A stretch of 64,000 nt of DNA from Minisyncoccia bacterium (GTDB lineage: Bacteria; Patescibacteriota; Minisyncoccia; Phycocordibacterales; Zambryskibacteraceae), in NCBI GenBank assembly GCA_049304015.1, contig JBAQNS010000016.1, positions 143 through 64,142 on the forward strand, read 5' to 3'. The notes under the pieces are model-generated. The model was given only the letters and a program-made list of their open reading frames with translations, did not search any database and was not told the origin of the DNA. This document shows, piece after piece, positions 2,634 to 64,000 of this stretch. Both the position numbers and the translations under genes were made by a program. The first letter of the stretch is position 1; every line of letters begins with the position of its first letter.

Positions 2634-3002
2634 ATGAAAAAATATCTTTCAGAAATACATACTAAGTCTCCTGAGCATAAGAAAAAATTTGCACTCAGTG
2701 TTTCTCTTGGAATAACTTTGATTATCTTTGGTATCTGGTCTTTGGTTAAATGGAGCGACCTATCAAAGAAGGATGTTGTAGTAGAAAACAGTCAACCAAT
2801 AGCTGATGAGATCACTCCAATTTCTAACCTTACAAGTGGTATTGCGAATTCTCTGGAGGCCATCAAAACCACAGCCACTGATTTGAAAAATTCTGTTAAT
2901 CAAGTCAATCTTCAAAATCAATATGAGAATATAAGGAATGAAGCTCTTCCTGCAGATGCTCAAAATGGTAATATAGACACCACTAATACTAATGGCCAGT
3001 AA
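2634..3002 (+). CDS. Small membrane-anchored hypothetical protein
   Basis: 122 aa with one N-terminal TM helix followed by a polar tail. Confidence 0.4.
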
Positions 3003-5463
3003 AGATATCAAAAAAGAAGAGGATAAAACACCGCTTACTCGTACGAGTGCGGTTGTTTCTCGTTCGATTACTACAGAGATGAAAGAATCGTTCATCGACT
3101 ATGCAATGTCGGTGATTACTGATAGAGCTTTACCTGATGTTCGAGATGGTTTGAAACCGGTGCATCGAAGAATTCTCTTCTCTATGAATGAGAAAGGTCT
3201 GACCGCAAGTGCTAAGAGCCGTAAGTCAGCTACAGTAGTTGGAGATGTGCTCGGATCGTACCACCCACACGGCGATGCTTCTGTTTATGAAGCAATGGTG
3301 AAGCTTGCTCAAGATTTTTCTACTAGGTATCCACTCATTATTGGTCAGGGTAACTTCGGTTCTATAGATGGAGACGGGGCGGCTGCGTACAGATACACCG
3401 AGGCCAAGATGAGTCGTGTGGCCAGCGAACTTTTGAATGATATAGACAAAAATACAGTTGATTTTAAAGCCAACTATGATGGCACCAAGAAAGAACCAAC
3501 AGTCCTACCTTCTGCACTTCCAAACTTACTTTTGAACGGTACCCTCGGTATTGCTGTGGGTATGGCCACCAACATTCCTCCACACAATCTCACTGAAGTG
3601 GTAGATGCCACTATTAAACTTATTGATGAGCCAAGTACTTCGACTGAAGAATTACTCGAGTCAGTAAAGGGTCCAGACTTCCCAACAGGAGGCATAATTT
3701 TTAATCAAAAAGAGATTCATCATGCTTATGCGACTGGTCGTGGAGGTATTGTGGCTCGAGGAGTAGCTGACATCACTGAGAACAAAGCAGGAAATTTCCA
3801 AATCATTATCACTGAGATTCCTTATAGAGTGAATAAATCGACTCTTATAGAAAAGATTGCTGATTTGGTTAGAGAAAAGAAAATTGATGGGATAAAAGGC
3901 CTCAGAGATGAATCAACGAAAGATATTCGTGTTGTTATTGATTTGAAAACCGGTTCTCAACCACAAAAAGTTTTGAATTCTTTGTATAAACATACTCAAC
4001 TCGAAGATACTTTCCATGTGAACATGGTGGCGCTGGTGGATGGGGTGCCTCAAACATTGTCTCTAAAGACAATGCTCCAAGAATTCATTAAGCACAGACA
4101 AGTGGTGGTAAAGCGTCGAGCCGAATTTGATCTAGAGAAGGCTCTGGCTCGTGAACATATCTTGCTCGGGTTATCCAAAGCCCTTGATCACATAGAAGAA
4201 GTCATAAAAATCATTCGTGCTTCAAAGGCTGTAGAGGATGCGAAGGTAAACCTCATGAAGAGATTCAAGTTTTCTGATCTCCAAGCCAATGCTATCCTCG
4301 AGATGCGTCTACAGAAACTAGCCGGACTTGAGAGGAAAAAAATTGAAGATGAACTTAAAGAAGTACAGACACTCATTGAAGAACTCAAAACTCTTTTGGC
4401 TTCAGCCAAAAAAATGCTCGCTGTGGTTAAGACAGAATTACTCGCTGCTCGAGATAAATATGGAGACGATAGACGTACAAAAGTTATCAAAGGCGGAGCC
4501 AAAATACTTTCTGTGGAAGATATGATTGCTGAAGAAGAAAATGCTCTTGTACTCACTTCTGGTGGTTACATCAAACGTACTAATCCAGACGAATATAAAA
4601 AGCAGAAACGAGGAGGTGTGGGAGTAGTGGACTTAGACACTAAGGAAGAAGACTTTGTCACTCATTTCCTCACTGCTTCGACTCATTCAGATCTTTTGTT
4701 CTTCACAGACAAAGGCAAAGCTTATCAAATCAAGATGTATGACATTCCTGAAGGTAAACGCGCCACCAAAGGTAAGTCTATTATGAACTTCATCTCACTT
4801 TCAGATGATGAGAAGATTACTTCGATTCTACCTATGTCTAAGGAAGCCAAGAATATCGAGGGAGCACTCCTTATGGTAACTGAACAGGGTACAGCCAAAA
4901 AGGTTGATGCCAAGTCGTTCCACGATGTTCGTTCATCTGGAATTATTGCCATCAAACTTGCTGCTGGGGATAAACTTATTTCTGTCTCACTCGTGATAAA
5001 GGGCGATGATGCTACTATTGTGACTAAAGATGGTCAATCTATAAGGTTCAAGGAGTCTGATATTAGGGAAATGGGTCGTGGAGCCGCTGGAGTGCGAGGT
5101 ATTAAACTTTCTAAAGGAGATAAAGTAGTTGGTGCTCATGAGATAAAGAAAGAATGGAAAGATGCACACCTACTTGTCATTTCTGCCAACGGTTATGGTA
5201 AACGCACCGAACTTTCTGAATATAAGGTTCAAGGCAGAGGTGGTTCAGGTATTTTGACTTCAAAGGTGACAAGTAAGACAGGTAATGTGATGGCTTCTCA
5301 AATCGTGACCGAAGACAGTGAAGAAGTGGTAGCTATATCTAAGAAATCTCAGGTTGTGCGTGTAGACATAAAAGAAATCCCAGTGCTCGGTCGTCAGACT
5401 CAAGGCGTACGCATCATGAAGCTCCGAGAAGGTGATTCTCTCGCATCTGTGATTTGTTTATAG
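2992..5463 (+). CDS. gyrA: DNA gyrase subunit A
   Basis: 823 aa with [24 protein letters not shown] and the active-site Tyr region. C-terminal beta-pinwheel repeats present. Confidence 0.9.
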
Positions 5464-9559: not shown

Positions 9560-9563
9560 AAAT

Positions 9564-9594
9564 AAAAAGAACTCCCAATCGGGAGTTCTTTTTA
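9564..9594. terminator. Bidirectional intrinsic terminator (aaaaaGAACTCCCaatcGGGAGTTCttttt)
   Basis: 8-bp stem with A-run and T-run flanks, between the pilin array (+) and tRNA-Leu (-). Confidence 0.6.
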
Positions 9595-9596
9595 TT

Positions 9597-9680
9597 TGGT
9601 GCCGGGGAGAGGACTTGAACCTCCACACCTTGCGGTACCAGTTCCTAAAACTGGCGTGTCTACCATTTCACCACCCCGGC
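9597..9680 (-). tRNA. tRNA-Leu (anticodon TAG), type II with long variable arm, CCA encoded
   Basis: Reverse complement folds as a cloverleaf: GCCGGGG acceptor, anticodon loop TTTAGGA, T-arm GGTTCAAGTCC. Confidence 0.8.
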
Positions 9681-9787
9681 ATAATACGGATACTTGTACT
9701 TGTGGTCAGGAATAGTTTTTTGCTAAAAACTTCCCCGACCCGGACTCGCGCCGTCGCGCTCCGTCTCGCACAAGTGCTCCGCACTTG

Positions 9788-9860
9788 TGCGCCCAGTAGG
9801 AGTCGAACCTACGACCATCTCCTTAAGAGGGAGCTGCTCTACCAGCTGAGCTATGGGCGC
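9788..9860 (-). tRNA. tRNA-Lys (anticodon CTT)
   Basis: Reverse complement GCGCCCATAGCTCAGCTGGTAGAGC..CTCTTAAGG..GGTTCGACTCC..TGGGCGCA. Confidence 0.8.
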
Positions 9861-9927
9861 TCGAATGTAGAGTATCGCAAATTTCTAACGATTTTTCAAT
9901 CGTTTTATGATAATGTAGATTCTGTTC

Positions 9928-9998
9928 GGCCTAGTAGCCAAGTGGTAAGGCACGGCTCTGCAAAAGCTTCATCGGCGGTTCGATTCCGCCCTAGGCCT
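9928..9998 (+). tRNA. tRNA-Cys (anticodon GCA), U73 discriminator
   Basis: GGCCTAG/CTAGGCC acceptor, anticodon loop CTGCAAA, T-arm GGCGGTTCGATTCCGCC, discriminator T. Confidence 0.7.
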
Positions 9999-10033
9999 CC
10001 CGAACAGTTTGTGTTTATAATAACTGTGAGGCA

Positions 10034-10119
10034 TGCCCGGGTGGTGGAATGGTATACACGGAGGACTTAAAATCCTCTGGTCGCAAGACCTTGTGGGTTC
10101 GAGTCCCACCCCGGGCACC
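10034..10119 (+). tRNA. tRNA-Leu (anticodon TAA), type II, CCA encoded
   Basis: GCCCGGG acceptor, anticodon stem-loop GAGGA CTTAAAA TCCTC, long variable arm, T-arm GGGTTCGAGTCCC. Confidence 0.8.
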
Positions 10120-10121
10120 AA

Positions 10122-10192
10122 AGCGAGGTTAGTTTAGTGGTAGAACTGGTGCTTCCCAAGCATCGGGCGCGAGTTCGATTCTCGCACCTCGC
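10122..10192 (+). tRNA. tRNA-Gly (anticodon CCC)
   Basis: GCGAGGT/ACCTCGC acceptor, anticodon loop TTCCCAA, T-arm GCGAGTTCGATTCTCGC. Confidence 0.8.
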
Positions 10193-10301
10193 ACCTTAGA
10201 ATCGAACTGGGAAGGGGTCGGGAAACGGGAGTTTCCCGTAGAGGAAGGTTGGGAAAACCGTTGGTTTCCCAGATGTGAGATATCTCGCACCTCGCACAAA
10301 G

Positions 10302-24296: not shown

Positions 24297-25160
24297 TTAG
24301 AAAGTTTTGCGGACTTCACCGAGTTCTTCGGTGATGAGGCCTTTGATTTCTAGGAGTGAGAGGATCGCACTCGCTTTACCTGTCTCAAATTTGCTGTTTC
24401 TTATAAGTTCATCACGTGTGCATGATGTTTCAAGAAGTTTTATAAAAATCTTTTCCTCATCGGTGAGGTCACTTGTATCAAAGAGAGTTTGATCTTCATC
24501 ATGCCTCTTTAGATGGAGCATTTCTAAAACATCATTTGAATCTCTTATTAAGGTTGCTCCAAGTCTTAGAAGCATATGAGGGCCCTCTGATGTTGGAGAA
24601 GTGATTGGCCCAGGGACAGCTCCTACGTCTCTGTTGTATTCAGTGGCCAAGCGCGAGGTGATGAGTGTTCCAGATTTGAGCTGGGCTTCTATAACTATAG
24701 TGGCGTCGCACATACCAGCCATAATTCTGTTCCTCTGAGGGAAGCTCCAAAGTGTTGCTTTGAAATCATCTTTATATTCAGAAAGTATACCTCCACCTGA
24801 TTCTATTATTTCATCTGCAAGGTTCACATTGGACCTAGGATGTATAACATCTCTAGAGACACCAGAGCCGGGGATGCCTATAGTCTGTAGTCCTGCGCGG
24901 AGAGCCGCGCGATGTACTATAGTATCCATACCTATGGCTAAGCCGGAGATAATAGTGATGGGATAGCCGGCGAGGCCAGCAATGATTGACTCGCACATCT
25001 CTTGGCCATAAGAACTATATTTTCTGGTACCCACTATGGCTACCAATTTGTTGCCTTCCATTGGGAGTTCACCGCGAATGCGGAGAGATTTGGGTGGATC
25101 ATTGATTTCCTTTAGTAATTCTGGAAATTGGTCAAACGAAAGATCACGGATATCGTTCAT
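24297..25160 (-). CDS. dprA: DNA processing protein DprA/Smf
   Basis: Rossmann-like DprA core (VAIVGTRKYSSYG ... GGGILSEY). topA-dprA adjacency. Confidence 0.75.
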   Translation of the reverse strand: MNDIRDLSFDQFPELLKEINDPPKSLRIRGELPMEGNKLVAIVGTRKYSSYGQEMCESIIAGLAGYPITIISGLAIGMDTIVHRAALRAGLQTIGIPGSGVSRDVIHPRSNVNLADEIIESGGGILSEYKDDFKATLWSFPQRNRIMAGMCDATIVIEAQLKSGTLITSRLATEYNRDVGAVPGPITSPTSEGPHMLLRLGATLIRDSNDVLEMLHLKRHDEDQTLFDTSDLTDEEKIFIKLLETSCTRDELIRNSKFETGKASAILSLLEIKGLITEELGEVRKTF

Positions 25161-25204
25161 TTAAATATTTTAGCATCTTTGTTATGATTGTTTGTAGTAA
25201 CAGA

Positions 25205-25262
25205 AAACCAAAGTCTTTACCCAGGCCAAGGTCTGGGCTCCGACAACTTTGATTTTCTTATT
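25205..25262 (+). promoter_or_regulatory. Conserved nested-hairpin RNA motif, copy A (5' leader of serS)
   Basis: agtCTTTACCC-[hairpin]-CTCCGACAACTT..TTTTCTTATT. Outer stem caaagt/actttg, inner stem cccag../..ctggg. Matches copy B at 63933-63990 with compensatory substitutions. Confidence 0.5.
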
Positions 25263-25275
25263 ACTCCAAAACAAT

Positions 25276-26544
25276 ATGTTAGACATTAAATTCATAAGAG
25301 AAAACAAAGACCTTATTACCCTTGGGGCCAAGAAGAAACACATCGAGTTCGACGTAGAAGCACTGCTCACTATAGATGATGAACGTCGAAGTCTCATGAC
25401 CAAACTTGAGGAAAGACGGGCAGAGCAAAACGCCGCCTCACTAGAGATTGTTCGTGCGGTTGGTCCAGAGAAATCTCAAATCCTTGAGAAGATGAAATTC
25501 CTAAAGGAGAGTATGGTCGCTGATGAAGAAAAGCTAAAGACAGTAATGCATGATTGGCAACTACAAATGCTCCAAGTGCCTAATGTACCCGATATATCTG
25601 TACCGGATGGGAACAGTGATGGAGATAATATGGAAGTGAAAAAGTGGGGTGAGCTTCCAAAATTCGATTTTGAACCAAAGAGTCATATAGAGATTATGGA
25701 AAATTTAGGGATGCTAGACCTTGAAAGGGGAACCAAAGTTTCTGGCTTTCGTGGATATTTCCTCAAAGGGGATGGAGCATTACTTTCTTTTGCTATTTGG
25801 AACTATGCGATGGATTTTTTCTTGAAGAAGAATTTTACTCCTATGATTGTGCCATCACTCGTGAAGAAAGAATCTCTTATAGGTACAGGCATGCTCCCAC
25901 AATCTGAAGAAGATTTGTATAAAACTCAAGATGGGGATTATCTCGCTGGGACAGCTGAGGTGGCTACTATGGGTTTTCATATGAATGAAATGATCCCTAA
26001 AACAGAGTTGCCTAAAAAGTATTTATCCTTCTCTCCATGCTTCCGCAGAGAAGCGGGGAGCTATTCTAAGGATGTGAAGGGTCTTATCCGAGTGCATGAA
26101 TTCTTTAAGGTTGAACAAGTGGTGCTCTGTGAGGCTAGTCATGAAGAATCAGTTGCTCACCACGAAGCCATAAACAGAAACACAGAAGAATTTATAGAGT
26201 CATTGAACATTCCTTACCACACAGTGACTAACTGTGGAGCAGACCTCGGGCTAGGACAAGTGAAGAAATACGATATAGAACTTTGGGTACCATTAGAGAA
26301 CAAATACAGAGAGATTTCTTCTGCTTCTTATTTCCACGATTTTCAAACACGTCGTTTAAACATTCGATATAAGGATACAGATGGGAAGACAAAGTATGTC
26401 CACTCACTAAACTCAACAGCTATCCCAACCCCACGCATCCTTGTTTCCCTCGTAGAAAATTTCCAACAAGCCGATGGTTCAGTAAAAATTCCTGAAGTGC
26501 TTGTGCCTTATATGGGAGGGAAGAAAGAGATTAGCAAAATTTGA
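25276..26544 (+). CDS. serS: Seryl-tRNA synthetase
   Basis: N-terminal coiled-coil arm, class II motifs. Start set at MLDIKFIREN. Confidence 0.85.
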   Translation: MLDIKFIRENKDLITLGAKKKHIEFDVEALLTIDDERRSLMTKLEERRAEQNAASLEIVRAVGPEKSQILEKMKFLKESMVADEEKLKTVMHDWQLQMLQVPNVPDISVPDGNSDGDNMEVKKWGELPKFDFEPKSHIEIMENLGMLDLERGTKVSGFRGYFLKGDGALLSFAIWNYAMDFFLKKNFTPMIVPSLVKKESLIGTGMLPQSEEDLYKTQDGDYLAGTAEVATMGFHMNEMIPKTELPKKYLSFSPCFRREAGSYSKDVKGLIRVHEFFKVEQVVLCEASHEESVAHHEAINRNTEEFIESLNIPYHTVTNCGADLGLGQVKKYDIELWVPLENKYREISSASYFHDFQTRRLNIRYKDTDGKTKYVHSLNSTAIPTPRILVSLVENFQQADGSVKIPEVLVPYMGGKKEISKI

Positions 26545-26616: not shown

Positions 26617-26982
26617 GTGGAAAAGCTCAGTGCAAAAGACATCAAGCCGGGCCAGTTGATCTGGTATAGCGGGCAGATGTCAGTTTCAAGTTGGGATTGT
26701 CCGGCGGTCATCACTACGGTCAAACCCAAGGATCAGACCTTTCGCGTTCGTTCTCTGGACGACATGAAGGAGCAGTCTCAGTCATATGGTTTTGATTGCG
26801 CTGTTGATACGACAGCCTCTCGGGCAAGCATGTATTTGGTTTCAAAGGAGGAAGTCGTGGAGTATCTGGATGATCGCGACAAAGCGATTTGCGATGATAT
26901 AAGGGATGTGGAAAGGAAGTTCAAGCGATACAAGTCTGACCTGAAGTTGTTTCGTGAGACAAGGAAAATTCTGGGGTTGTAG
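26617..26982 (+). CDS. Hypothetical protein (mid-GC orphan; GTG start)
   Basis: 121 aa at about 50% GC. Its own terminator lies at 26982-27012. Confidence 0.3.
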   Translation: MEKLSAKDIKPGQLIWYSGQMSVSSWDCPAVITTVKPKDQTFRVRSLDDMKEQSQSYGFDCAVDTTASRASMYLVSKEEVVEYLDDRDKAICDDIRDVERKFKRYKSDLKLFRETRKILGL

Positions 26983-27098
26983 CCCTCACAAGTATTGTGC
27001 AGGGCTTTTTTATTGACCGAATATTGTTTTCGGGTTATGATGGTGCAATACAGAAGTATAAAGATGTCTTTTGGGCAATCTATCTTTGAGAGGACTTA

Positions 27099-27452
27099 AT
27101 GAGTGACGGAGTGAGGTTCGGCGGTTCAGTGTACGGTTACCAGCATGGTGATCAAAGAGCACGAGGACTCGTGATTCGGGGCTTTGCTGTCCAGAAACAT
27201 CTCGTCGACACCGGTCTCATCGACAAGTGCCTTTCGATGGAAGATGCTTCTGTGTGGATTGAGAACCCTCACCTCTATCCAGAAGAATTTCGGAGAAAGA
27301 AAGTATTTCTCTGGAAGTCTACTGATCTGAGCAGTGATGGTCTCCATATTGTCCCTTGCCTTGAATGGTTTGGCGGTCAGATTACCGTCACCAATGTTTG
27401 GCTCGGAGACATTTGGTGCGACACAAGGCTCGCTGCCGTAATGGCGGCTTGA
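27099..27452 (+). CDS. Hypothetical protein (mid-GC orphan)
   Basis: 117 aa at about 50% GC. Its own terminator lies at 27456-27486. Confidence 0.3.
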   Translation: MSDGVRFGGSVYGYQHGDQRARGLVIRGFAVQKHLVDTGLIDKCLSMEDASVWIENPHLYPEEFRRKKVFLWKSTDLSSDGLHIVPCLEWFGGQITVTNVWLGDIWCDTRLAAVMAA

Positions 27453-27503
27453 GTGACAGCTGGACACATCGTCCAGCTTTTTTTATTTATGTATAATGTG
27501 CGT

Positions 27504-28340
27504 ATGAAAATCATTGGCAACAAAAACGCCCTTCATACTCCTGAATTCCATAAAAAGAAATTAATAGAGAGGCGTATTCGCATCACTATTATTTCTTTGA
27601 TTGTCTTAATTGTTGTAGTTGCCCCCATACTTCTTCTAAGAAACAAAAATTTTCAAGTAGTTAACTTGGAGATTAAAGGCAATGTGGTTACAAAGAGTGA
27701 AGAAATCCAGGCTATTGTCGATGAGGGATTATCTGGTAACTATCTTTGGGTTATCCCTCGTTCAAATTCTCTTTTATATCCAAAGAATGGAATTATTAAA
27801 AATCTTCTAGATAGAGAGCCGAGACTTTCTAAGGTAGAAATAAGTGCTCCGGATGTTAAGTCGATTGTAGTCAGTGTTTCTGAGAGGACCCCAACAGCTC
27901 TGTATTGCAAGGACATCACAAACACTTCTACGCCTGTGAGTTGTTACTTCATAGATGCAAACGGGTTTATTTTCTCAGAGGCTCCAGCATTTTCTGGGGG
28001 AGTCTATTTTGTTTATACTAGTGAACCACTACTTGATGCACCACTAAAGGTTCAATTCATGGAAGCGAAGAAATTTAAATTACTCGATGTATTCATAAAG
28101 AGTTTAGCAGACGCAGGTTTGTATCCAAAAGTTTTTGTCTTCAAAAAAGATGAATATCACCTCATCCTCTCGAACGGTGCAGATATAATGTGGAAGGAAA
28201 GTCAGAATCTAGATCAAATTCGGTCGAATCTCGTTTCTTTTGTTGAAGATGCCAGTTTTAGAAAGGATAAAAATAACTTGAGCAATATCCTATATATAGA
28301 TTTGCGTTTTGGTAACAAAATATTCTATAAATACAAATAA
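27504..28340 (+). CDS. ftsQ: FtsQ/DivIB-like cell-division protein (TM helix plus POTRA-like domain)
   Basis: N-terminal TM helix (ISLIVLIVVVAPILLL), then a POTRA-like region (VVNLEIKGN...). The start could alternatively be 27489 or 27453. Confidence 0.5.
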   Translation: MKIIGNKNALHTPEFHKKKLIERRIRITIISLIVLIVVVAPILLLRNKNFQVVNLEIKGNVVTKSEEIQAIVDEGLSGNYLWVIPRSNSLLYPKNGIIKNLLDREPRLSKVEISAPDVKSIVVSVSERTPTALYCKDITNTSTPVSCYFIDANGFIFSEAPAFSGGVYFVYTSEPLLDAPLKVQFMEAKKFKLLDVFIKSLADAGLYPKVFVFKKDEYHLILSNGADIMWKESQNLDQIRSNLVSFVEDASFRKDKNNLSNILYIDLRFGNKIFYKYK

Positions 28341-29329
28341 TGACTAATTTTTGGACCAAATTGCAGAAACCCTCGGCCAAAGCACGGGCGAGGCCAATTA
28401 TGGTTCTTGCTCCTATGGCTGATGTCACCGATGTGGCTTTTAGGAGAATAATAGCTAAATATGGTAAGCCAGATGTTTTGTGGACCGAATTTGTGTCAGC
28501 AGACGGGTTAGTGCTCGCAGATAAGAAGGGTAAAAAGAAACTTTCAAAGGATTTAGAGTATTCAGAAGCTGAGAGGCCAATCGTGGCACAATTTTTTACT
28601 TCAATTCCAGAGCATATGGAGGAGGTGGCCAAGCTTGCAATGAAGCTTGGCTTTGATGGTGTAGATATAAATATGGGTTGCCCAGATAAGAGCATAGAGA
28701 AGCAGAAGGCTGGAGCAGCATTAATAAAAAACCCCAAATTAGCCAGAGAGCTTATAAAGGCAGCCAAACGTGGAGCAGGAAGTTTGCCTGTTTCTGTGAA
28801 GACTCGCGTGGGGTATAACAAGATAGAGATAGAAGAATGGCTACCAGAAATACTCAAGGAAGAACCAGCAGTGCTCATTGTCCATGCAAGGACTAGGAAA
28901 GAAATGTCCAAGGTGTCTGCACGGTGGGAATTTGTGAAGAGGGCAGTAGAAATCAGAAATGAGCTCGGAGTAAAAACTTTAATATTTGGAAACGGAGACG
29001 TGAGAGACCTAGAAGACGCAAGGATGAAAGCCAAGGAGACTGGGTGTGATGGGGTGATGCTCGGGCGAGCCATCTTTGGGAATCCATGGCTTTTCTCTGA
29101 GCACATTCCAACTCTTAAAGAGAAACTAAATGTCTTAGTTGAACACACAAAACTTTTTGAAAAACTTTTGGGTAAATATAAAAACTTCGCAGTGATGAAG
29201 AAACACTTTAAAGCGTATGTGAATGGATTCGATGGGGCACAAGATCTTAGAAATAAACTTATGAATACAAATTCAGCCAAAGAAGTGGAGAAAATTGTTA
29301 AAAATTACTTATCCACAGTTTCAAATTAA
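28340..29329 (+). CDS. dus: tRNA-dihydrouridine synthase
   Basis: TIM-barrel Dus motifs (LAPMADVTD, DINMGCP, VHARTR). Confidence 0.8.
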   Translation: MTNFWTKLQKPSAKARARPIMVLAPMADVTDVAFRRIIAKYGKPDVLWTEFVSADGLVLADKKGKKKLSKDLEYSEAERPIVAQFFTSIPEHMEEVAKLAMKLGFDGVDINMGCPDKSIEKQKAGAALIKNPKLARELIKAAKRGAGSLPVSVKTRVGYNKIEIEEWLPEILKEEPAVLIVHARTRKEMSKVSARWEFVKRAVEIRNELGVKTLIFGNGDVRDLEDARMKAKETGCDGVMLGRAIFGNPWLFSEHIPTLKEKLNVLVEHTKLFEKLLGKYKNFAVMKKHFKAYVNGFDGAQDLRNKLMNTNSAKEVEKIVKNYLSTVSN

Positions 29330-29339
29330 TTACTTGCAA

Positions 29340-29805
29340 AGTTTTTTTGACGGGTGTAGATTATAAATTCCCCCCAACGGCCGTTGGAGGGAGGCGACCC
29401 ACCCTTTCACCAGGGACAGTCGATGGTGTCAGTTCTTCGCTCCCGGATGCGTGACTGCTTTCGGGGGGACCTTCCGCCGTAGCGTTTCTGGCGCAGCGTA
29501 AGGTCAGCTGCACCGGCCACTTGAGCCCTTCCGCTCAGATTTAAGTGGTCAGCAGGACAACTCATGGTTCACCGGATGGTGGACAACATGGTGGGGGAAG
29601 GCCCGCTATCCCGGTCGCTTCGACGACCTGCGTTTCGGCCGAACTGCCCGATAGCGCTCCACGGCGAATCAGTGGATCGGACTCTCTCTTGGGTCAGGAT
29701 CAGTACAACTCATGACTGACAACCTGGCCCAGGCGAGGGACCCCGATGCTCTACGAGCAAACACACACAGCCGCGACCGCAAGGTACGCGGTTATTTTTT
29801 ATATA
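29340..29805 (+). ncRNA. GC-rich ORF-free segment ending in an intrinsic terminator: candidate structured RNA (unidentified)
   Basis: About 460 nt, GC-rich, with no ORF of 60 aa or more on either strand. Possible promoter TTGCAA-17-TAGATT at 29332-29366. Hairpin plus T-run at 29771-29800. Many local GC stems. Confidence 0.3.
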
Positions 29806-29890
29806 CTTAACCTTTGACAAACTTAATTTTTTATGATAGTAAGAGTACAGAGCAGTTGTCCTTTTAGGCTACTTTTCAGGAGGTATTTCC

Positions 29891-31024
29891 ATGCGCAAGA
29901 TAAGATGGTTGCTGGGAGCGTTGGTGCTCGTCACTGCGTGTCAGCCTGACCGCTTGATCAGCATCAAGATCGACGACAGTTCGAGTCATCCTGGCTCAGG
30001 AACTGTGTTGGTCACCGGGGTGACCGTCACCTCGTCGCCGAACATCACTCTGTCGATCGGGGTGTCGTGCACAAACACGACGTCTCAGATTGTCGTCGCA
30101 GTTGCTCCGGCAAATGCGACGAACACCGCCGTCAGCTACACTGTCACGAGCCACGGCTCAGTGATGGTTAGCTCGACTGGTCTCGTCACCGCTCTCAAGG
30201 CGGGGACGGACACGGTGTACGTGACTTCGGTCGCTGACGCTTCGAAGAAGGCGTTCGTGGTAGTGACGGTGTCTGGCACCTCGTGTGCTTCAACGCCGGC
30301 TTGTCCGAACGGCTTCAGTTCTTGCAGTGGTGCACGATGGAGCGATGCGGGGATGACTCCGCAGGACACAACGTACACCTTCAGCCACAAGCGGCACGTG
30401 AAGGGTCTCACTTACATCCCGAGTGGTGTGAGTACCGAGATTCTTGTGCGTTCCGCGCTGGGTTGTGAGGCTGCGGCCAGCACGCCGCAAGTCATCGCGA
30501 CATCGTTGGCGAACGTCTATGCGGTGGATGTGGAGCTGCAGGCAATCAATATCTGCAGCGACAGTACGGTCTTCAAGTTGAAGGCCGACTCGACGCAGAA
30601 GAAGGCGGTCCATGTGACCGTTGTCTCTGCTCCGGGTTCTGTCCGGCTCAATCCTCCGACGACAATCGGAGGTGTGGGTGCCACTGGCAAGTACACCTGC
30701 ACAGTGAGTGGTTTGGCGGACTTGCGTTGCTGGTTCTATTCTACCAATCCGTTGGTAGTGTCCATCGTTCAGAAGGACACTACGTACACCGCTGCCACGT
30801 TCCCGTGGCCGGCAGGTGCAAACATCGGTGGTACGTACAAGAACCTCAGCGCTGGATCTGCGGGTATCTGCACCTTCAGTCCGAGCAATCCGGCCATCGC
30901 GGATTGCAAGAATCATGTAGTGTCGTCTGGCTCTGCCTTGATGGCCGGCTCGGGTCTCATGGCTCAAGCCGAACTTCAGGAATGGGCAGTGCCTGAGGTT
31001 CTAAGGGTTCTCACAAAACCCTAG
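29891..31024 (+). CDS. Lipoprotein with bacterial Ig-like (BIG2) domain; GC-rich gene
   Basis: Lipobox LVTAC. BIG2-like repeat (VTGVTVTSSPNITLSIG...TVYVTSVAD). Strong RBS caGGAGGt. Terminator at 31037-31070. Confidence 0.6.
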   Translation: MRKIRWLLGALVLVTACQPDRLISIKIDDSSSHPGSGTVLVTGVTVTSSPNITLSIGVSCTNTTSQIVVAVAPANATNTAVSYTVTSHGSVMVSSTGLVTALKAGTDTVYVTSVADASKKAFVVVTVSGTSCASTPACPNGFSSCSGARWSDAGMTPQDTTYTFSHKRHVKGLTYIPSGVSTEILVRSALGCEAAASTPQVIATSLANVYAVDVELQAINICSDSTVFKLKADSTQKKAVHVTVVSAPGSVRLNPPTTIGGVGATGKYTCTVSGLADLRCWFYSTNPLVVSIVQKDTTYTAATFPWPAGANIGGTYKNLSAGSAGICTFSPSNPAIADCKNHVVSSGSALMAGSGLMAQAELQEWAVPEVLRVLTKP

Positions 31025-31145
31025 CGGGTAACAACGGGCTAGCACCTTCGGGTCGCTAGCCTTTTTCTTTATCCAGAATGTTATATTTAATGAATTAATC
31101 CCGTTAGAAGTTTTGAGAATAATTTATTACATTTATAATTAACAA

Positions 31146-31421
31146 ATGAATACTTCTAACGGGATGAAGATTATAGTGAAAGCTAAGGCTGGAGCAAAAC
31201 TTGAGAAGATAGAACGAGTAGATCAGCCAAGTTTAAATTTTGATAATGAGAAGTTAAGTCTGCCAGTCTACAAAGTATGGGTACGAGAACCTGCTGTAGA
31301 CGGCAAAGCCAATAAAGCCATCATAAGAGTACTATCAGAACATTTTAAAGTAGCACCATCGCTTATAACCCTCGTCTCTGGACAAATATCTAAGCAAAAG
31401 ATTTTTGAAATAAGTTTATAG
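31146..31421 (+). CDS. DUF167 (YggU-like) protein
   Basis: 91 aa, low-GC, with YggU-like sequence (KVWVREPAVDGKANKAII). Confidence 0.45.
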   Translation: MNTSNGMKIIVKAKAGAKLEKIERVDQPSLNFDNEKLSLPVYKVWVREPAVDGKANKAIIRVLSEHFKVAPSLITLVSGQISKQKIFEISL

Positions 31422-31435
31422 TGTAGAATAACTTT

Positions 31436-32143
31436 ATGGAATTAATATTTATAGATACAGAAACCACCGGAGTAGATGTCACCACAGACAGATTGGTGCA
31501 AGTTTGTTATAGGGACTCTACGGGTATACACACAGAATATTTTAAACCACCGCTACCTATGTCTGTGAAGTCTATGAGCATCACTCACATCACTGATGCG
31601 ATGCTCGAAGACAAGCCATCTTTCTCAGACAGTCAGATGAAAAAGGATTTAATATTTCTTTTATCATCAGGAATTTTTGTCGCTCACAATGCGAAGTTTG
31701 ATATAGCTATGCTTGAGAAGGAAGGAGTGAAAGCTGGACAATATATTTGTACACTACGAGTAGCCAAGAATTTGGATATAGAAGGCGCTATCCCTGAATA
31801 TAGTTTGCAGTATTTGCGTTATCACTTTGGGCTAAATGTCGAAGGTAACCCGCATGATGCAGAAGGAGATGTGAATGTCTTAGTGGCACTATTCAATAAA
31901 CAACTAGAAGAAGTGATGAAGACTGTGCCAGATAGGGAAGAGGCTATTAAAAAAATGATTGAAATATCAAATACTCCATCATTATATAAAGTATTCAATT
32001 TTGGTAAACATAAGGATGAGAAGATAAAGGACGTAGCTGTTTCTGACCGCGGTTACCTAGAATGGCTCTTAAACCAAAAGCTCTCAGCAGGGGAAGAGGA
32101 CGAAGATTGGATTTTTACTTTGAAGTTTTATCTTGGTAAATAA
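31436..32143 (+). CDS. DnaQ-like 3'-5' exonuclease (DEDDh) with C-terminal KHKG/YLxWL domain
   Basis: Exo I FIDTETTG, Exo II VAHNAKFD, Exo III HDAEGD. C-terminal FGKHKDEKIKDV...YLEWLL. Confidence 0.7.
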   Translation: MELIFIDTETTGVDVTTDRLVQVCYRDSTGIHTEYFKPPLPMSVKSMSITHITDAMLEDKPSFSDSQMKKDLIFLLSSGIFVAHNAKFDIAMLEKEGVKAGQYICTLRVAKNLDIEGAIPEYSLQYLRYHFGLNVEGNPHDAEGDVNVLVALFNKQLEEVMKTVPDREEAIKKMIEISNTPSLYKVFNFGKHKDEKIKDVAVSDRGYLEWLLNQKLSAGEEDEDWIFTLKFYLGK

Positions 32144-32293
32144 CGGCTAATTATAGCCACGAAACAAGCTTGACAATTTGTCTAGTGTATGCTATCTTAG
32201 CTGGCAGACTCTAAATGTCGATCTTTGACATTAAGTTTATCTACTATCATCCCGTATCACCACGCAGTAAAACCAAAGGAGGTTTAAGTATGT

Positions 32294-32569
32294 ATGCCTA
32301 GCAAAGGCGAAGCGACAACTCTGAAGGCGGTGGTACAAAAGGTCGTCGATGGCAAACACGGCTGCTATGCAGTTGCCACTTCAAGCAAAATTGAAGGATC
32401 CATTACGTTTTCGTTGGATCCGGACGTTTGGCAAGAAAAGGCAAAACCCCAAGAGGGTTACGAGGTTGTCCTTGGCGATATCAGGAAGAAGTCCGCTGGA
32501 TGGCGGGCCCATTCCGCACGTTTCCTGAGGCCTGAAGATAAGGTCTCCAACAGCAGCAAAAAGCACTGA
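32294..32569 (+). CDS. Small hypothetical protein, first gene of the GC-rich operon
   Basis: 91 aa. Preceded by promoter TTGACA(32170)-17-tgcTATCTT and RBS AAGGAGG. Confidence 0.4.
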   Translation: MPSKGEATTLKAVVQKVVDGKHGCYAVATSSKIEGSITFSLDPDVWQEKAKPQEGYEVVLGDIRKKSAGWRAHSARFLRPEDKVSNSSKKH

Positions 32570-32582
32570 GCAAGGAGCCAAC

Positions 32583-33218
32583 ATGGCCGGAAGAATCAAA
32601 CAGTTTCTTGTTGATCAGAAATTGATCACAGGAGACGGTACACAATCTGGAAGCGCAGTGAAAGCTGCGCCGACACAGACTGCAAGTGTCGCCTCGATGC
32701 CACGCCCTGTGGCTACGGTGGGTGTAGCCGACACTGAATACGTCGGTGCCCTCCGTGAAGCGATGACGAAGTCAACAGTGAATGGATTTCAGGAATTCCA
32801 AGATCAACTCGGAATCTTTGAATCCGTTCCTGGAATGGACGAACCGATGCGTTTCCGCACTGCTATCACAGCTCTCTCAAAGAGCTCTGGTATCAAGCGG
32901 GATCAAATCGTGAAGGCCTCCGAAGATCGTCTTCGGATTCTGGTCGCGGCGCGCGATGAATTCGCCCACACGATCGAGGAGCGTCGTAACCGAGAACTCG
33001 GCAGCAATGAGGCTGACTTGTCAGCCACTCGCGCCGAGATCGATACGAAGCGCAAGGAAATCCAGGAGCTTGAAGGCAAGCTCCAGCAACTCGAAGTCAA
33101 GAAGCAAACGATCAACCAGAAGCTCACAGCTGCAAGCACTGCTTTCGGCAATGCTTATGCGGTTGTGGAAGCGGAGGTCAGATCGTTTGTCTCGAAGCTC
33201 ACGCAGTATCTCACCTAG
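32583..33218 (+). CDS. Soluble coiled-coil protein (PspA/TelA-like guess, weak)
   Basis: 211 aa. C-terminal half is heptad-like (RAEIDTKRKEIQELEGKLQQLEVKKQ). GC-rich. Confidence 0.4.
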   Translation: MAGRIKQFLVDQKLITGDGTQSGSAVKAAPTQTASVASMPRPVATVGVADTEYVGALREAMTKSTVNGFQEFQDQLGIFESVPGMDEPMRFRTAITALSKSSGIKRDQIVKASEDRLRILVAARDEFAHTIEERRNRELGSNEADLSATRAEIDTKRKEIQELEGKLQQLEVKKQTINQKLTAASTAFGNAYAVVEAEVRSFVSKLTQYLT

Positions 33219-33238
33219 CAACCAGCAAGGAGTATCAC

Positions 33239-34291
33239 ATGAGTGAAGTCCCAGCTGTTCAAGTTCCTCTTCCCCTGAAAAATTGGGTGAAGGGAACGAA
33301 CGGTGCCATGGCAGTTCTGAGTCTCGGTGCTGGTGCGATGATCGCCTACCTGGCGCTCCCCACCATCATCACGCTCCTCACGAATACTGCCATCGCTCTT
33401 GGTTGGCTCGTGGTTGTCGGTGCCATCGTTGGCGCCGGCTTCCTGATTCTGCCCATCATCTTTCACCTGTGGCCGAAGATTCGGTACCAGCAGAAGGTGT
33501 GGGCACTCGCTATCGCTGAACAGATGGTCAAACGTGACCCTGTTCGGTGGTCGCAGATCTACATTGATGACCTCAAGAAGAAGGCGCAAGCCCTTCTTGG
33601 TGCCATCACTCAGGCAGTCAAGTCTCTGATGACGGCAAAGCGCAAGCGCGATGAGAACATCAAGCTTCGCGACGATGCTCGAGCGAAGGCCCAGGCCGCT
33701 TACAAGGCGGGCAACCAGGCCGAGGCTGTTCGGTGGGAACGCGCTGCCAAGCGCAAGGATGACGCCATCGCTCGTTCAGAGCGTTGGATTCAGATGCTCG
33801 AACTCATCGTTCGCGCTCTGAAGAAGCTGAGTTCAACCCTCGAGACCCGCATTGCGGATCAGGAGGATGAGCTCAAGTCCTACATCGACGAGTACGAGAC
33901 GGCTCAGCAGGTTGAACCCGGCATTCGTGCCGGCATGAATGCGTTGGCTCCCGATGAAGACCTGCGTCACATCAAGGAGTCGGCTATCAAGGAAATGACA
34001 TCCAAGGCTGATGGCATGTACGCCGAACTTGAGATGACGATGGAGGCTTTCCAGCCTATCATCTCTGCTCAGGATCTCGACGATGCCGCGGCATTCGAAA
34101 GGATGTCGAAGGCGTTTGCCCAGTGGGAAAAGGGCGTCGATTCGACGCTCCTCGGCCCTGGTGGCAAGCAGCAGCTCATCGCTGAAACGCTCGACCCGAT
34201 GAATATCCTCAAGATCGAGGGTCCGCGTGGCGAGAAGATCCCTGTGGTCAAGGGAACGAGGGGAAGTTTCGACGATTTGATCGACCGGTAG
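33239..34291 (+). CDS. Membrane-anchored coiled-coil protein (2 TM helices plus long helical domain; PspA/IM30-like guess, weak)
   Basis: Two N-terminal TM helices, then about 250 aa of charged, Ala-rich helical sequence (EAVRWERAAKRKDDAIARSE...). Confidence 0.4.
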   Translation: MSEVPAVQVPLPLKNWVKGTNGAMAVLSLGAGAMIAYLALPTIITLLTNTAIALGWLVVVGAIVGAGFLILPIIFHLWPKIRYQQKVWALAIAEQMVKRDPVRWSQIYIDDLKKKAQALLGAITQAVKSLMTAKRKRDENIKLRDDARAKAQAAYKAGNQAEAVRWERAAKRKDDAIARSERWIQMLELIVRALKKLSSTLETRIADQEDELKSYIDEYETAQQVEPGIRAGMNALAPDEDLRHIKESAIKEMTSKADGMYAELEMTMEAFQPIISAQDLDDAAAFERMSKAFAQWEKGVDSTLLGPGGKQQLIAETLDPMNILKIEGPRGEKIPVVKGTRGSFDDLIDR

Positions 34292-62399: not shown

Positions 62400-63455
62400 A
62401 TGTCAGCAACAATTGTTGGTCTAATTATACTTATTGGGCTTGTGATTTTTTTAATTTGGAAGATTAGTCAGAAGCCAGAAAGTACAGACAGCAAAGGCTT
62501 AGACCTCCTTCTCCAACAAATCAACGAACTTTCTCGTACCATGGATCACAAGATGAGTGAGTCTAATAAAATGATGAACGAGTCAGTCAGGAATCAATTT
62601 GGTGAATCAGCCAAGCTTATCCGAGAGGTGACTGAAGGATTGGTGAAGCTTGATGAGACTAACAGACAAGTGGTTTCCTTTGCTGACCAACTACAGTCTT
62701 TAGGTGATATGTTAAAAAACCCAAAACAGCGCGGAGTATTGGGTGAGTATTACTTAGAGACACTACTTAAGAATACGATGCCGGCAGGAAGCTTTGAGAT
62801 GCAATATGAATTGGGTATGAGCGAAGATGGTTCCCGTTTGATTCCAGATGCCATAGTGAGAGTGAAAGATAAAATTATCCCTATTGATTCAAAATTCTCA
62901 CTTGAGAATTACAACAAACTTGTTGAGGAAAAAGATCCTGTACAGAAAGAAAAGTTAGAAAAGTTATTTGTTCAAGATTTAAAAAATAGAATTGCTGAAA
63001 CTTCTAAATATATTCAACCGAGTATGGGGACCATGGACTTCGCTTTTATGTTCATCCCTCACGAAGCGATTTATTATGACCTAATAGTGAACAAAATTGG
63101 TGCCCTTCAAGAGGAAACAGAAAGTTTAATTCAACGAGCGGCTTCAAAATACAAAGTTATTATCGTCTCCCCAACTTCTTTTCTTGCCTATCTTCAAACC
63201 GTGATGCAAGGTTTAAGGGCTCTCCAAATCGAAGAGAAAGCTCAAGAGATAGTGAAAAAGGTGAGTGATTTAGGCAAACATCTAAAGAGCTATGAGGAAT
63301 ATTATATGAAGCTTGGAAATACCCTTGGGACAGCAGTAAACCACTACAATAGTGCAGGCAAGGAGCTTTCTAAGGTAGACAAGGATGTGCTCAGAATAAC
63401 CGGCACTTCAGCCGGTATAGAGACAGTAGTTGTGGATAAACCAAGCCTAGAATAG
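62400..63455 (+). CDS. rmuC: DNA recombination protein RmuC
   Basis: N-terminal TM helix, coiled-coil, RmuC C-terminal nuclease-like domain. Confidence 0.7.
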   Translation: MSATIVGLIILIGLVIFLIWKISQKPESTDSKGLDLLLQQINELSRTMDHKMSESNKMMNESVRNQFGESAKLIREVTEGLVKLDETNRQVVSFADQLQSLGDMLKNPKQRGVLGEYYLETLLKNTMPAGSFEMQYELGMSEDGSRLIPDAIVRVKDKIIPIDSKFSLENYNKLVEEKDPVQKEKLEKLFVQDLKNRIAETSKYIQPSMGTMDFAFMFIPHEAIYYDLIVNKIGALQEETESLIQRAASKYKVIIVSPTSFLAYLQTVMQGLRALQIEEKAQEIVKKVSDLGKHLKSYEEYYMKLGNTLGTAVNHYNSAGKELSKVDKDVLRITGTSAGIETVVVDKPSLE

Positions 63456-63504
63456 GCTTTTTCCCTTGCCTTTTGGGGATATATCTGTAGAATATAGTCC
63501 CTAT

Positions 63505-63918
63505 ATGGCTGAAGCAAAAACAACTAAACCAAAGGCAGTAAAAGCAGCCCCTAAAGCCGCTCCAAAGGCCCCAAAAGCCCCTAAAACAGCATCTAATGCT
63601 GACTTCGCAGTATTCGCCACCGGAGGCAAACAGTACCGAGTTTCTGCTGGAGATTCAGTGAAGATTGAGAAGATTATCGGTGAATATAAGGAAGGAGATA
63701 AAATCACCTTCAATGAAGTTCTTCTTGTGGACAACGGTTCTACAGAAGCTACCATCGGCACACCTTTCATCACAGGAGCAAGCATTAGTGCTACTTTAAA
63801 GAAGATCGGTCGTTACCCAACTATTGATGTCATCAAGTATAAACAGAAGTCTCGATACTTTAAGAAAAACGGTCACCGACAACCATACTTTGAAGTCACT
63901 ATAGATTCTATTAATTAG
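63505..63918 (+). CDS. rplU: 50S ribosomal protein L21 with Lys/Ala/Pro-rich N-terminal extension
   Basis: FAVFATGGKQYRVSAGDSVKIEKI...GHRQPYFEVTI. Start ambiguous between 63466 and 63505. Confidence 0.75.
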   Translation: MAEAKTTKPKAVKAAPKAAPKAPKAPKTASNADFAVFATGGKQYRVSAGDSVKIEKIIGEYKEGDKITFNEVLLVDNGSTEATIGTPFITGASISATLKKIGRYPTIDVIKYKQKSRYFKKNGHRQPYFEVTIDSIN

Positions 63919-63932
63919 TTTCGGACAAAATA

Positions 63933-63990
63933 AAAAACAGAAGTCTTTACCCGACCTGGTCGGGCTCCGACAACTTCTGTTTTCTTATTT
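63933..63990 (+). promoter_or_regulatory. Conserved nested-hairpin RNA motif, copy B (downstream of rplU)
   Basis: agtCTTTACCC-[cccgacc tg gtcggg]-CTCCGACAACTT with outer stem aacagaagt/acttctgtt, then TTTTCTTATT. Compare copy A at 25205-25262. Confidence 0.5.
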
Positions 63991-64000
63991 TGTCCTGTGC

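Follow-up and report, generated by a model that had tools for sequence, protein, structure and literature searches.

The window (the whole stretch of DNA analyzed here, 64 kb in length) carries two copies of a hairpin element, both on the + strand. Copy A (25196 to 25265) lies in the spacer between dprA (24297 to 25160, − strand) and serS (25276 to 26544, + strand), within the serS 5′ leader. An earlier note on this DNA had correctly placed it just 5′ of serS; we add that the spacer separates two divergent genes. Copy B (63923 to 63995) fills the gap between rplU, whose stop codon is at 63916 to 63918, and the convergent gene recR, whose stop codon (63985 to 63987, complement) falls inside the 3′ arm of the hairpin. 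The recR neighbor was seen on a Logan contig (L092) that encodes an identical rplU protein and carries the same hairpin. The note was right that copy B is 3′ of rplU, but its suggestion of a leader upstream of translation genes fails for this copy, which stands between convergent genes and is followed by recR rather than rpmA. The window SerRS sequence places the source organism in the Patescibacteria, class Paceibacteria (Parcubacteria), among neighbors labeled Taylor-, Zambryski-, and Kaiserbacteria.

The two copies share a core, GUCUUUACCC-(hairpin)-GGGCUCCGACAAC, that occurs exactly twice in the window. An exact search of the 64 kb with the pattern GTCTTTACCC-N(5-25)-GGGCTCCGACAACTT returned exactly two matches, both on the + strand (25213 to 25249 and 63943 to 63976), while the same pattern was absent from all 100 dinucleotide-preserving shuffles of the window, so that 0 matches are expected by chance. 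The 3′ half of the core had no near relative elsewhere in the window. Copies A and B also have in common an identical 10-mer tail, TTTTCTTATT, and are alike in their 5′ arms (AAYARAAAAC).

In copy A, an A-rich 5′ arm (25196 to 25213, with the closing G at 25213) pairs with a U-rich 3′ arm (25247 to 25265, including UUUUCUUAUU) to form the lower stem. Above this stem, the 5′ loop strand UCUUUA (25214 to 25219) and the 3′ loop strand CUCCGACAA (25238 to 25246) flank an apical hairpin, CCCAGGCC-AA-GGUCUGGG (25220 to 25237). The predicted minimum free energy is −23.2 kcal/mol (z-score, −4.1). Copy B has the same loop strands (UCUUUA at 63944 to 63949 and CUCCGACAA at 63965 to 63973) around a different apical hairpin, CCCGACC-U-GGUCGGG (63950 to 63964), and folds with −26.6 kcal/mol (z-score, −5.9). 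As the note had observed, both the outer stems (CAAAG/CUUUG in copy A and ACAGAAG/CUUCUGU in copy B) and the inner hairpins (CCCAGGCC..GGUCUGGG and CCCGACC..GGUCGGG) differ in sequence yet still pair. The nested architecture described there also stands, although the proposed length of ~58 nt does not: pairing between the A-rich 5′ flank and the U-rich tail extends the hairpins to 70 to 73 nt. Similarly, the segments that the note took to be single stranded are indeed shared but are not wholly unpaired, with G-C and U-A pairs possible at the base of the loop and the CCC/GGG clamp on top.

Several other features of the window were recorded. A ~60% GC island in this 42% GC genome (1432 to 1842) follows an S1-protein gene, and the sole open reading frame (ORF) across it has no Pfam match; the island contains dense GC hairpins, such as a perfect 15-bp stem at 1490 to 1526, folds with a z-score of −4.3, has no Rfam match at E ≤ 1, and is a candidate large structured noncoding RNA. 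Four consecutive small genes with domains like those of type IV secretion system pilins (PF18895; 7331 to 9559) are followed by a canonical terminator (9560 to 9597) and a five-tRNA cluster (9597 to 10195). A run of ORFs without Pfam matches extends from 26617 to 34291, with gaps of 805 and 610 nt, and the GC content is 54.5% in the block at 32 to 36 kb versus 37 to 46% elsewhere in the window; this run and block may be acquired DNA. An inverted repeat with 20-nt arms and a 34-nt AT-rich loop (31095 to 31168), which lies just before a DUF167/YggU-like gene and overlaps its start, is unrelated in sequence to the element.

An exact-core scan of GTDB species genomes gave no match; the closest relative carries a one-base variant that was found later with a covariance model. 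A scan of JGI metagenomes returned 11 loci, 7 of which (5 distinct) have the full architecture. The other four (L001, L006, L007, and L009) were discarded as chance or coding matches: they are GC rich, lack the outer stem, and score 21 to 34 bits with the covariance model. The five distinct contigs range from 37 to 52% GC and have no other DNA similarity to the window or, among the pairs compared, to each other. With contexts confirmed by Pfam, the element lies directly 3′ of hup (L002, identical to L008), rplL (L004), rplS (L005, nearly identical to L011), and ftsH (L010), and 5′ of groES (L003, a Paceibacterota contig as judged from its GroEL neighbors). Together with the window copies, five of seven distinct genomic sites are thus 3′ of genes (rplU, hup, rplL, rplS, and ftsH), and in three of these five the next gene is on the opposite strand. 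The note asked whether downstream genes are enriched for translation functions; the neighbors are highly expressed housekeeping genes in general, including hup, ftsH, and groES as well as ribosomal-protein genes and serS.

A covariance model (R1) was built from seven copies; it scores copy A at 57.4 bits and copy B at 58.7 bits. R1 found no further copy in the metagenome loci and a single match in 1.29 Mb surrounding serS from 80 related species. This match (L012) is in the closest relative, whose SerRS is 84% identical, at the same site 5′ of serS and with arms identical to those of copy A. In L014 (83%), a diverged version at the serS site, G-CUUUA-CCC...GGG-GCCUACA-C, was recognized by eye, while L013 and L015 have no hairpin there. 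At the groES site, two relatives of L003 with 93 to 94% identical GroEL proteins (L099 and L100) keep the element and a third, at 81%, lacks it (L101). Among relatives at the rplU site, L094/L095 and L096 have no spacer at all, and L097 has a plain terminator, AAAAAUCCGG-GUAA-CCGGAUUUUU, where copy B stands. Overall, searches with R1, with a TTTACCC+GGG+stem descriptor, with a CTTTA...CNACA descriptor, and with a scan for long inverted repeats added only L012, L014, L099, and L100. Because R1 gives L014 just 5.6 bits, very divergent members can be missed by such searches. A scan of viral contigs in IMG/VR gave no match. The element is sparse and patchy within the Paceibacteria, to which all copies so far are confined.

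Two further structures were seen on the collected contigs. A hairpin in L024 (2140 to 2205) has a 21-bp stem and a 24-nt loop containing GUUUACCC but lacks both the inner hairpin and the 3′ core; it may be distantly related to the element, a decayed version of it, or a coincidental match. The 719-kb Paceibacterota contig L099 carries the core of a diversity-generating retroelement (bAvd and reverse transcriptase; 2992 to 4379) ~5 kb from its groES-leader copy.

Across all copies, the anatomy is a 20- to 23-bp A/U-rich lower stem, an asymmetric internal loop (UCUUUA opposite approximately CUCCGACAA), and a short apical hairpin clamped by CCC and GGG. The lower stem is ~23 bp in L002, L004, L005, L010, and copy B, and the hairpin feet are mostly RGA...UCY on the different contigs. 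Folding z-scores for all copies lie between −4.1 and −9.0 relative to shuffled controls. The apical hairpin always starts with CCC and ends with GGG but is otherwise free, with loops of CAAG, CUG, CCG, UCUAC, UCUUC, UAAC, or UUU. Two pairing registers are possible at the internal loop: one has G-C and U-A pairs and a 5×8 loop, and the other has GUC/GAC pairing, a 4×4 loop (UUUA/CUCC), and an AAC bulge. The groES lineage favors the GUC/GAC register, and L014 fits only the G-C/U-A register. The conserved loop module comprises 31 to 36 nt. The full hairpin is missed by a simple terminator scan.

In an alignment of 11 distinct copies, CUUUACCC on the 5′ side forms invariant columns; CUUUA is present in 11 of 11 copies, and the leading U is absent in L014. 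Of GGG-CUCCGACAA-C on the 3′ side, only G..C.AC is retained. The eight main-type copies have CUCCGACAA as their 3′ strand, and the others have CUUCGACAA (L012), CUCCGACGC (L099), CCCACGC (L100), and GCCUACA (L014). The alignment indicates that the 5′ loop strand is the constrained surface, with the 3′ strand mainly staying noncomplementary to it. The lower stem covaries. Double changes occur in 6 of its 11 pairs, 91.8% of alignment cells are paired versus 76.9% after shuffling, and the covariation score of 0.388 (versus 0.119 for shuffled alignments) was reached by 0 of 500 shuffles. Slid registers of the lower stem all score far lower. When six independent copies were permuted, the observed pairing was reached by 0 of 265 derangements. 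The note would have been refuted by a lack of further copies or of covarying stems; further copies exist, and their stems covary.

Small ribozyme classes are marked by fixed loops, free stems, and a patchy distribution, and the conserved unpaired nucleotides framed by variable helices, together with sporadic occurrence in several copies, could fit a small self-cleaving ribozyme. We regard this as extremely improbable: Rfam ribozyme models gave no match even at E ≤ 10, one of the two loop strands varies, there is no conserved pseudoknot partner, and location in the terminators and untranslated regions (UTRs) of essential genes speaks against cleavage.

Orthologous copies were compared with the genes that flank them. 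The window and L012 agree at only 50% of third codon positions in serS and 62% in dprA, whereas their 115-nt dprA-serS spacers differ by three substitutions when the apical hairpin is set aside (~97% identity). Within the 12-nt apical segment there are five changes (L012 has CCCGACCCGGUCGGG), and the hairpin is kept; of this part of the element, only the CCC/GGG clamp is conserved. Likewise, L099 and L100 are 49% identical at third positions of groEL, yet GCCUCGCGUCUUUACCC and CGACUC are unchanged in the leader and the outer arms, although diverged, still pair. Synonymous sites are saturated over the same distances, so orthologous copies that are either conserved or changed in a compensatory way show selection on the element, and this rules out neutral junk and chance terminators. 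The ~97% identity between the window (25161 to 25275) and L012 (9889 to 10000) was observed to extend over the entire spacer, beyond the hairpin; in L014, at a similar protein distance, the spacer sequence is completely different and the architecture is the same.

The null explanation given in the note, that copies A and B are two unrelated intrinsic terminators alike by chance, is therefore refuted, and we assign it a negligible probability. Both copies do have A- and U-rich flanks, and copy B is exactly where a terminator would be expected. However, no match is expected by chance in the window, the same 10- plus 13-nt core recurs on five further unrelated contigs and is conserved at orthologous sites, and copies without U tracts exist. 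In all, ~10 further lineage-distinct copies share the loop and have different, compensating stems.

All copies are in the sense orientation relative to the adjacent highly expressed gene. This orientation is unambiguous where rplL is followed by the element and then by a + strand gene (L004), where the element stands between rplS and a PduO-type gene (L005/L011), and where a TTGACT-17-TATAAT promoter ~120 nt upstream is followed by the element and then by groES (L003, L099, and L100). In four of the five 3′-end copies, the hairpin foot is 1 to 7 nt past the stop codon or overlaps it, which leaves no room for a separate promoter. At the serS site, an extended −10-like sequence read from the window, TGTTATGAT (25180 to 25188, + strand), ends 7 nt before the base of the copy A hairpin, and L014 has TATAAT at the equivalent place; the serS mRNA may therefore start at the hairpin foot. 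Shine-Dalgarno-like sequences are absent before serS, rplU, and dprA (25160 to 25276 and 63455 to 63505), and a TAAAAT −10-like box 6 nt before the dprA ATG suggests a leaderless dprA mRNA.

The groES leaders contain a second hairpin just after the promoter, GUUUACUC-N6-GGGUAAAC followed by U6 (L003, 5104 to 5128, − strand; L099, 9513 to 9540; L100, 9493 to 9520). Its 3′ arm, GGGUAAA, is perfectly complementary to UUUACCC of the element ~50 nt downstream. This complementarity could reflect an alternative pairing or an operator. As a general feature of the element it was rejected because it is present only in the groES lineage.

The opposite strand folds equally well or better, especially for the 5′-UTR copies, whose arms fold with −23 to −30 kcal/mol on the opposite strand versus −17 to −24 kcal/mol on the sense strand, because A·C oppositions become G·U pairs. 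The asymmetry between G·U and A·C as a guide to the active strand thus did not support the sense strand. Further, GC skew is positive across the window, making the + strand the probable leading strand, and the orientation of the copies could consequently reflect replication rather than transcription. The functional structured RNA that the note proposed is well founded as a conserved structured element; only the orientation of the copies points to RNA as the active form.

A DNA-level explanation is a selfish palindromic repeat of the REP or MITE type. It would be moved by a transposase supplied in trans, such as an HUH or tyrosine enzyme that reads the mismatched loop when the hairpin forms in single-stranded DNA, and its insertions would be tolerated chiefly at terminators and in intergenic spacers. 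A 23-nt conserved core with its structure cannot plausibly arise independently at many sites. The similar arms of copies A and B, with the shared TTTTCTTATT tail, and the complexity of the core argue that copies spread by duplication or transfer rather than originating on the spot. The patchy occurrence among relatives, the long near-perfect inverted repeats of fairly constant length (~23 bp) with RGA...UCY bases, and the folding of the opposite strand would also be expected of such a repeat. Nevertheless, we consider it unlikely. Copies are very few (2 in the 64-kb window and 1 in the 41 kb covered by loci L012 and L096 of the closest relative), and stems vary while the loop is fixed, the opposite of the pattern in young transposon copies. 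Orthologous copies are under purifying and compensatory selection despite saturated synonymous sites, and orientation is always sense to the neighboring gene. Finally, no target-site duplication is visible, Pfam found no transposase, reverse transcriptase, or HUH domain in the ~60 window ORFs, and there is no IMG/VR match.

The reading that we favor, at somewhat less than an even chance, is a cis-acting RNA stem-loop located at the ends of transcripts and resembling a terminator where these are 3′ ends, with an internal loop that docks a trans-acting factor; both the factor and its effect are postulated. A stem-loop of ~70 to 80 nt would be made within the mRNA of the adjacent highly expressed gene. 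At the 3′ ends of rplU, hup, rplL, rplS, and ftsH, the A tract, stem, and U tract would replace an ordinary bidirectional intrinsic terminator and protective 3′-end hairpin, while in the serS and groES leaders the element would be a 5′-UTR hairpin. In either setting, the pyrimidine-rich CUUUACCC strand, kept unpaired above the long helix by a noncomplementary opposite strand, would serve as the docking site, most likely for a protein, and the bound factor may set read-through, processing, or stability of the transcript. The structure of the element, its conservation and selection, and the positions and orientation of its copies are direct observations to which this model gives a function. Its rarity and patchiness count against the model, since a general housekeeping signal would probably be commoner.

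The distribution of U tracts narrows what the common function might be. A U tract immediately follows the hairpin at all of the 3′-end sites (copy B, L002, L004, L005/L011, and L010). Copy A, L012, and L014 have a U-rich tail that lies within a 5′ leader, and a U tract is missing from the groES-leader copies (L003, L099, and L100). This excludes termination as a function common to all copies. The specialized terminator with a recognition loop suggested in the note therefore fits the five 3′-end copies and not those in groES leaders.

Alternatively, a small stable RNA, a ~75-nt hairpin, might be freed from 5′ and 3′ UTRs and act in trans via its loop. Double-stranded RNA of 20 to 25 bp is an RNase III-sized substrate, and release could, for example, be by RNase III acting on the ~23-bp stem. 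The near-constant hairpin length and similar base sequences (RGA...UCY) on unrelated contigs agree with this idea, as does conservation of the loop whatever the neighboring gene. On the other hand, the 3′-end copies leave no space for a separate promoter of such an RNA, neither loop strand has a complementary target within the window, and the copies are multiple and diverged, with different arms and apices. We think that such an RNA is quite improbable.

Whatever its mechanism, this is a previously undescribed structured element that is under selection and narrowly distributed. Almost nothing is known of gene regulation and RNA biology in the Patescibacteria, which cannot be grown alone, and here a compact element with clear covariation marks the ends of transcripts for ribosomal proteins, HU, FtsH, GroES, and SerRS. 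Should the loop prove to dock a protein or Nus factor, it would offer a testable handle on termination, read-through, or mRNA stabilization in reduced genomes. If the element is instead a mobile palindrome, it would be the first REP-like system for the group. The element also provides annotators with a new covariance model.

Known systems were compared with the element. A scan of the window with Rfam 15 at gathering thresholds found only nine tRNAs, and scans of copy A and the L010 copy at E ≤ 10 gave only chance-level matches (a microRNA, plastid psbJ, and STnc370). Literature searches by sequence strings and topic found no description of the element, and a Pfam search of the ~60 window ORFs for a transposase or special RNA-binding partner returned housekeeping genes only. 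Several candidates were rejected. A kink-turn has a 3-nt bulge and then tandem sheared G·A/A·G pairs, set between a canonical and a noncanonical stem; inspection of both strands found no register that puts GA/GA next to the bulge without 4 to 6 extra unpaired nucleotides. The Tas-associated TIGR arrays of the candidate phyla radiation consist of tandem units with conserved edge and loop repeats (UG...CCA), variable 9-nt spacers, and a Nop-domain Tas gene; the element is solitary, has conserved loops and variable stems (the reverse pattern), and has no Tas gene nearby. The UUUACC of the element resembles the asymmetric loop of the E. coli signal recognition particle (SRP) RNA, but domain IV of bacterial SRP (4.5S) RNA, a single-copy structure with a GNRA-type tetraloop and conserved symmetric and asymmetric loops, was rejected because only UUUACC is alike, the apical loops vary, there are two copies, and there is no Rfam SRP match. 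A T-loop, attC, ribozyme cores, CIRCE, promoter hexamers, and a small ORF were likewise dropped on inspection.

RNase III sites of the phage T7 type consist of two helices with an asymmetric internal loop, lie between or after highly expressed genes, and leave a protective 3′ hairpin. The element resembles these hairpins in its two helices, its asymmetric internal loop, and its location by highly expressed genes. It differs in that loop sequence is little conserved at RNase III sites. REPs stabilize upstream mRNA and bind proteins, and the element is like the REP/BIME repeats of E. coli and its relatives in being an imperfect palindrome found at gene ends or between convergent genes, several per genome. 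Unlike those repeats, it has far fewer copies, its internal loop rather than the whole palindrome is conserved, and this loop is common to lineages with no other DNA similarity. A REP/RAYT system was rejected for the window, with its two copies in 64 kb, conservation of the loop only, and no Y1/RAYT or other transposase in the ~60 ORFs.

A ligand-sensing riboswitch or attenuator inside the terminator hairpin could tune read-through in response to a metabolite or ion. The HMP-PP riboswitch (thiS motif; PMC6478431) is a precedent for a small aptamer nested in a terminator hairpin. This riboswitch is consistently found 5′ of one gene family. The element similarly has a small conserved internal loop within a terminator-type hairpin, and in the serS leader this hairpin is flanked by a U tract. 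However, the element is mostly 3′ of unrelated genes (five of seven sites are 3′ of genes), several copies stand between convergent genes with nothing downstream to regulate, and no common pathway links the associated genes. In addition, a terminator tail is missing from the groES copies, conservation does not extend to the 3′ loop strand, and no Rfam riboswitch model matches. A riboswitch or leader attenuator, for which a position 5′ of one coherent set of regulated genes would be expected, was accordingly set aside as very unlikely.

The BoxA consensus, GYTCTTTAANA (PMC5725501), has essential positions at G2, C5, and U6. UCUUUA of the element corresponds to the central BoxA hexamer, is single stranded directly after a helix as in nut sites bound by NusB-NusE, and is near translation- and growth-related genes. 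In contrast with BoxA, the essential G that should stand two positions ahead of the C is shifted by 1 nt (2 nt in L014), AANA is replaced by CCC, and the site is in an internal loop rather than in a free single strand. The consensus is thus not matched: the element reads N-G-TCTTTA-CCC, with the G one position too close and no AANA. No rRNA operon whose own BoxA could be compared was present in the window or the 101 loci examined. On this comparison, recognition of the UCUUUA loop as a BoxA by Nus factors is a long shot. A broader proposal, which we consider somewhat unlikely but worth stating, is that the loop is a Paceibacteria-specific address tag carried in the transcript-end hairpins of a few highly expressed genes. 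A dedicated factor, possibly a NusB/S10-like BoxA reader in view of the UCUUUA core beside a helix, might read the tag, switch transcripts among terminator, read-through, and processed states, and so couple ribosomal, chaperone, and nucleoid genes to one signal. If true, the tag would represent a new class of cis-regulatory RNA in the candidate phyla radiation.

Bidirectional intrinsic terminators share the most visible features of the 3′-end copies. In five lineages the hairpin directly follows a stop codon, and its stem is preceded by an A tract and followed by a U tract; copy B, which separates convergent genes, takes the position of a plain terminator in a relative (L097). Intrinsic terminators differ in that their stems are short and G+C rich rather than A/U rich and 20 to 23 bp long, and in having no counterpart to the conserved 31- to 36-nt module that forms the loop of the element. 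They also do not account for the groES-leader copies, which lack a U tract, or for the serS copies, which lie between divergent genes. By analogy, the element appears to be most like an intrinsic terminator, or a 3′ hairpin of the REP type, into which a sequence-specific internal-loop module has been built.
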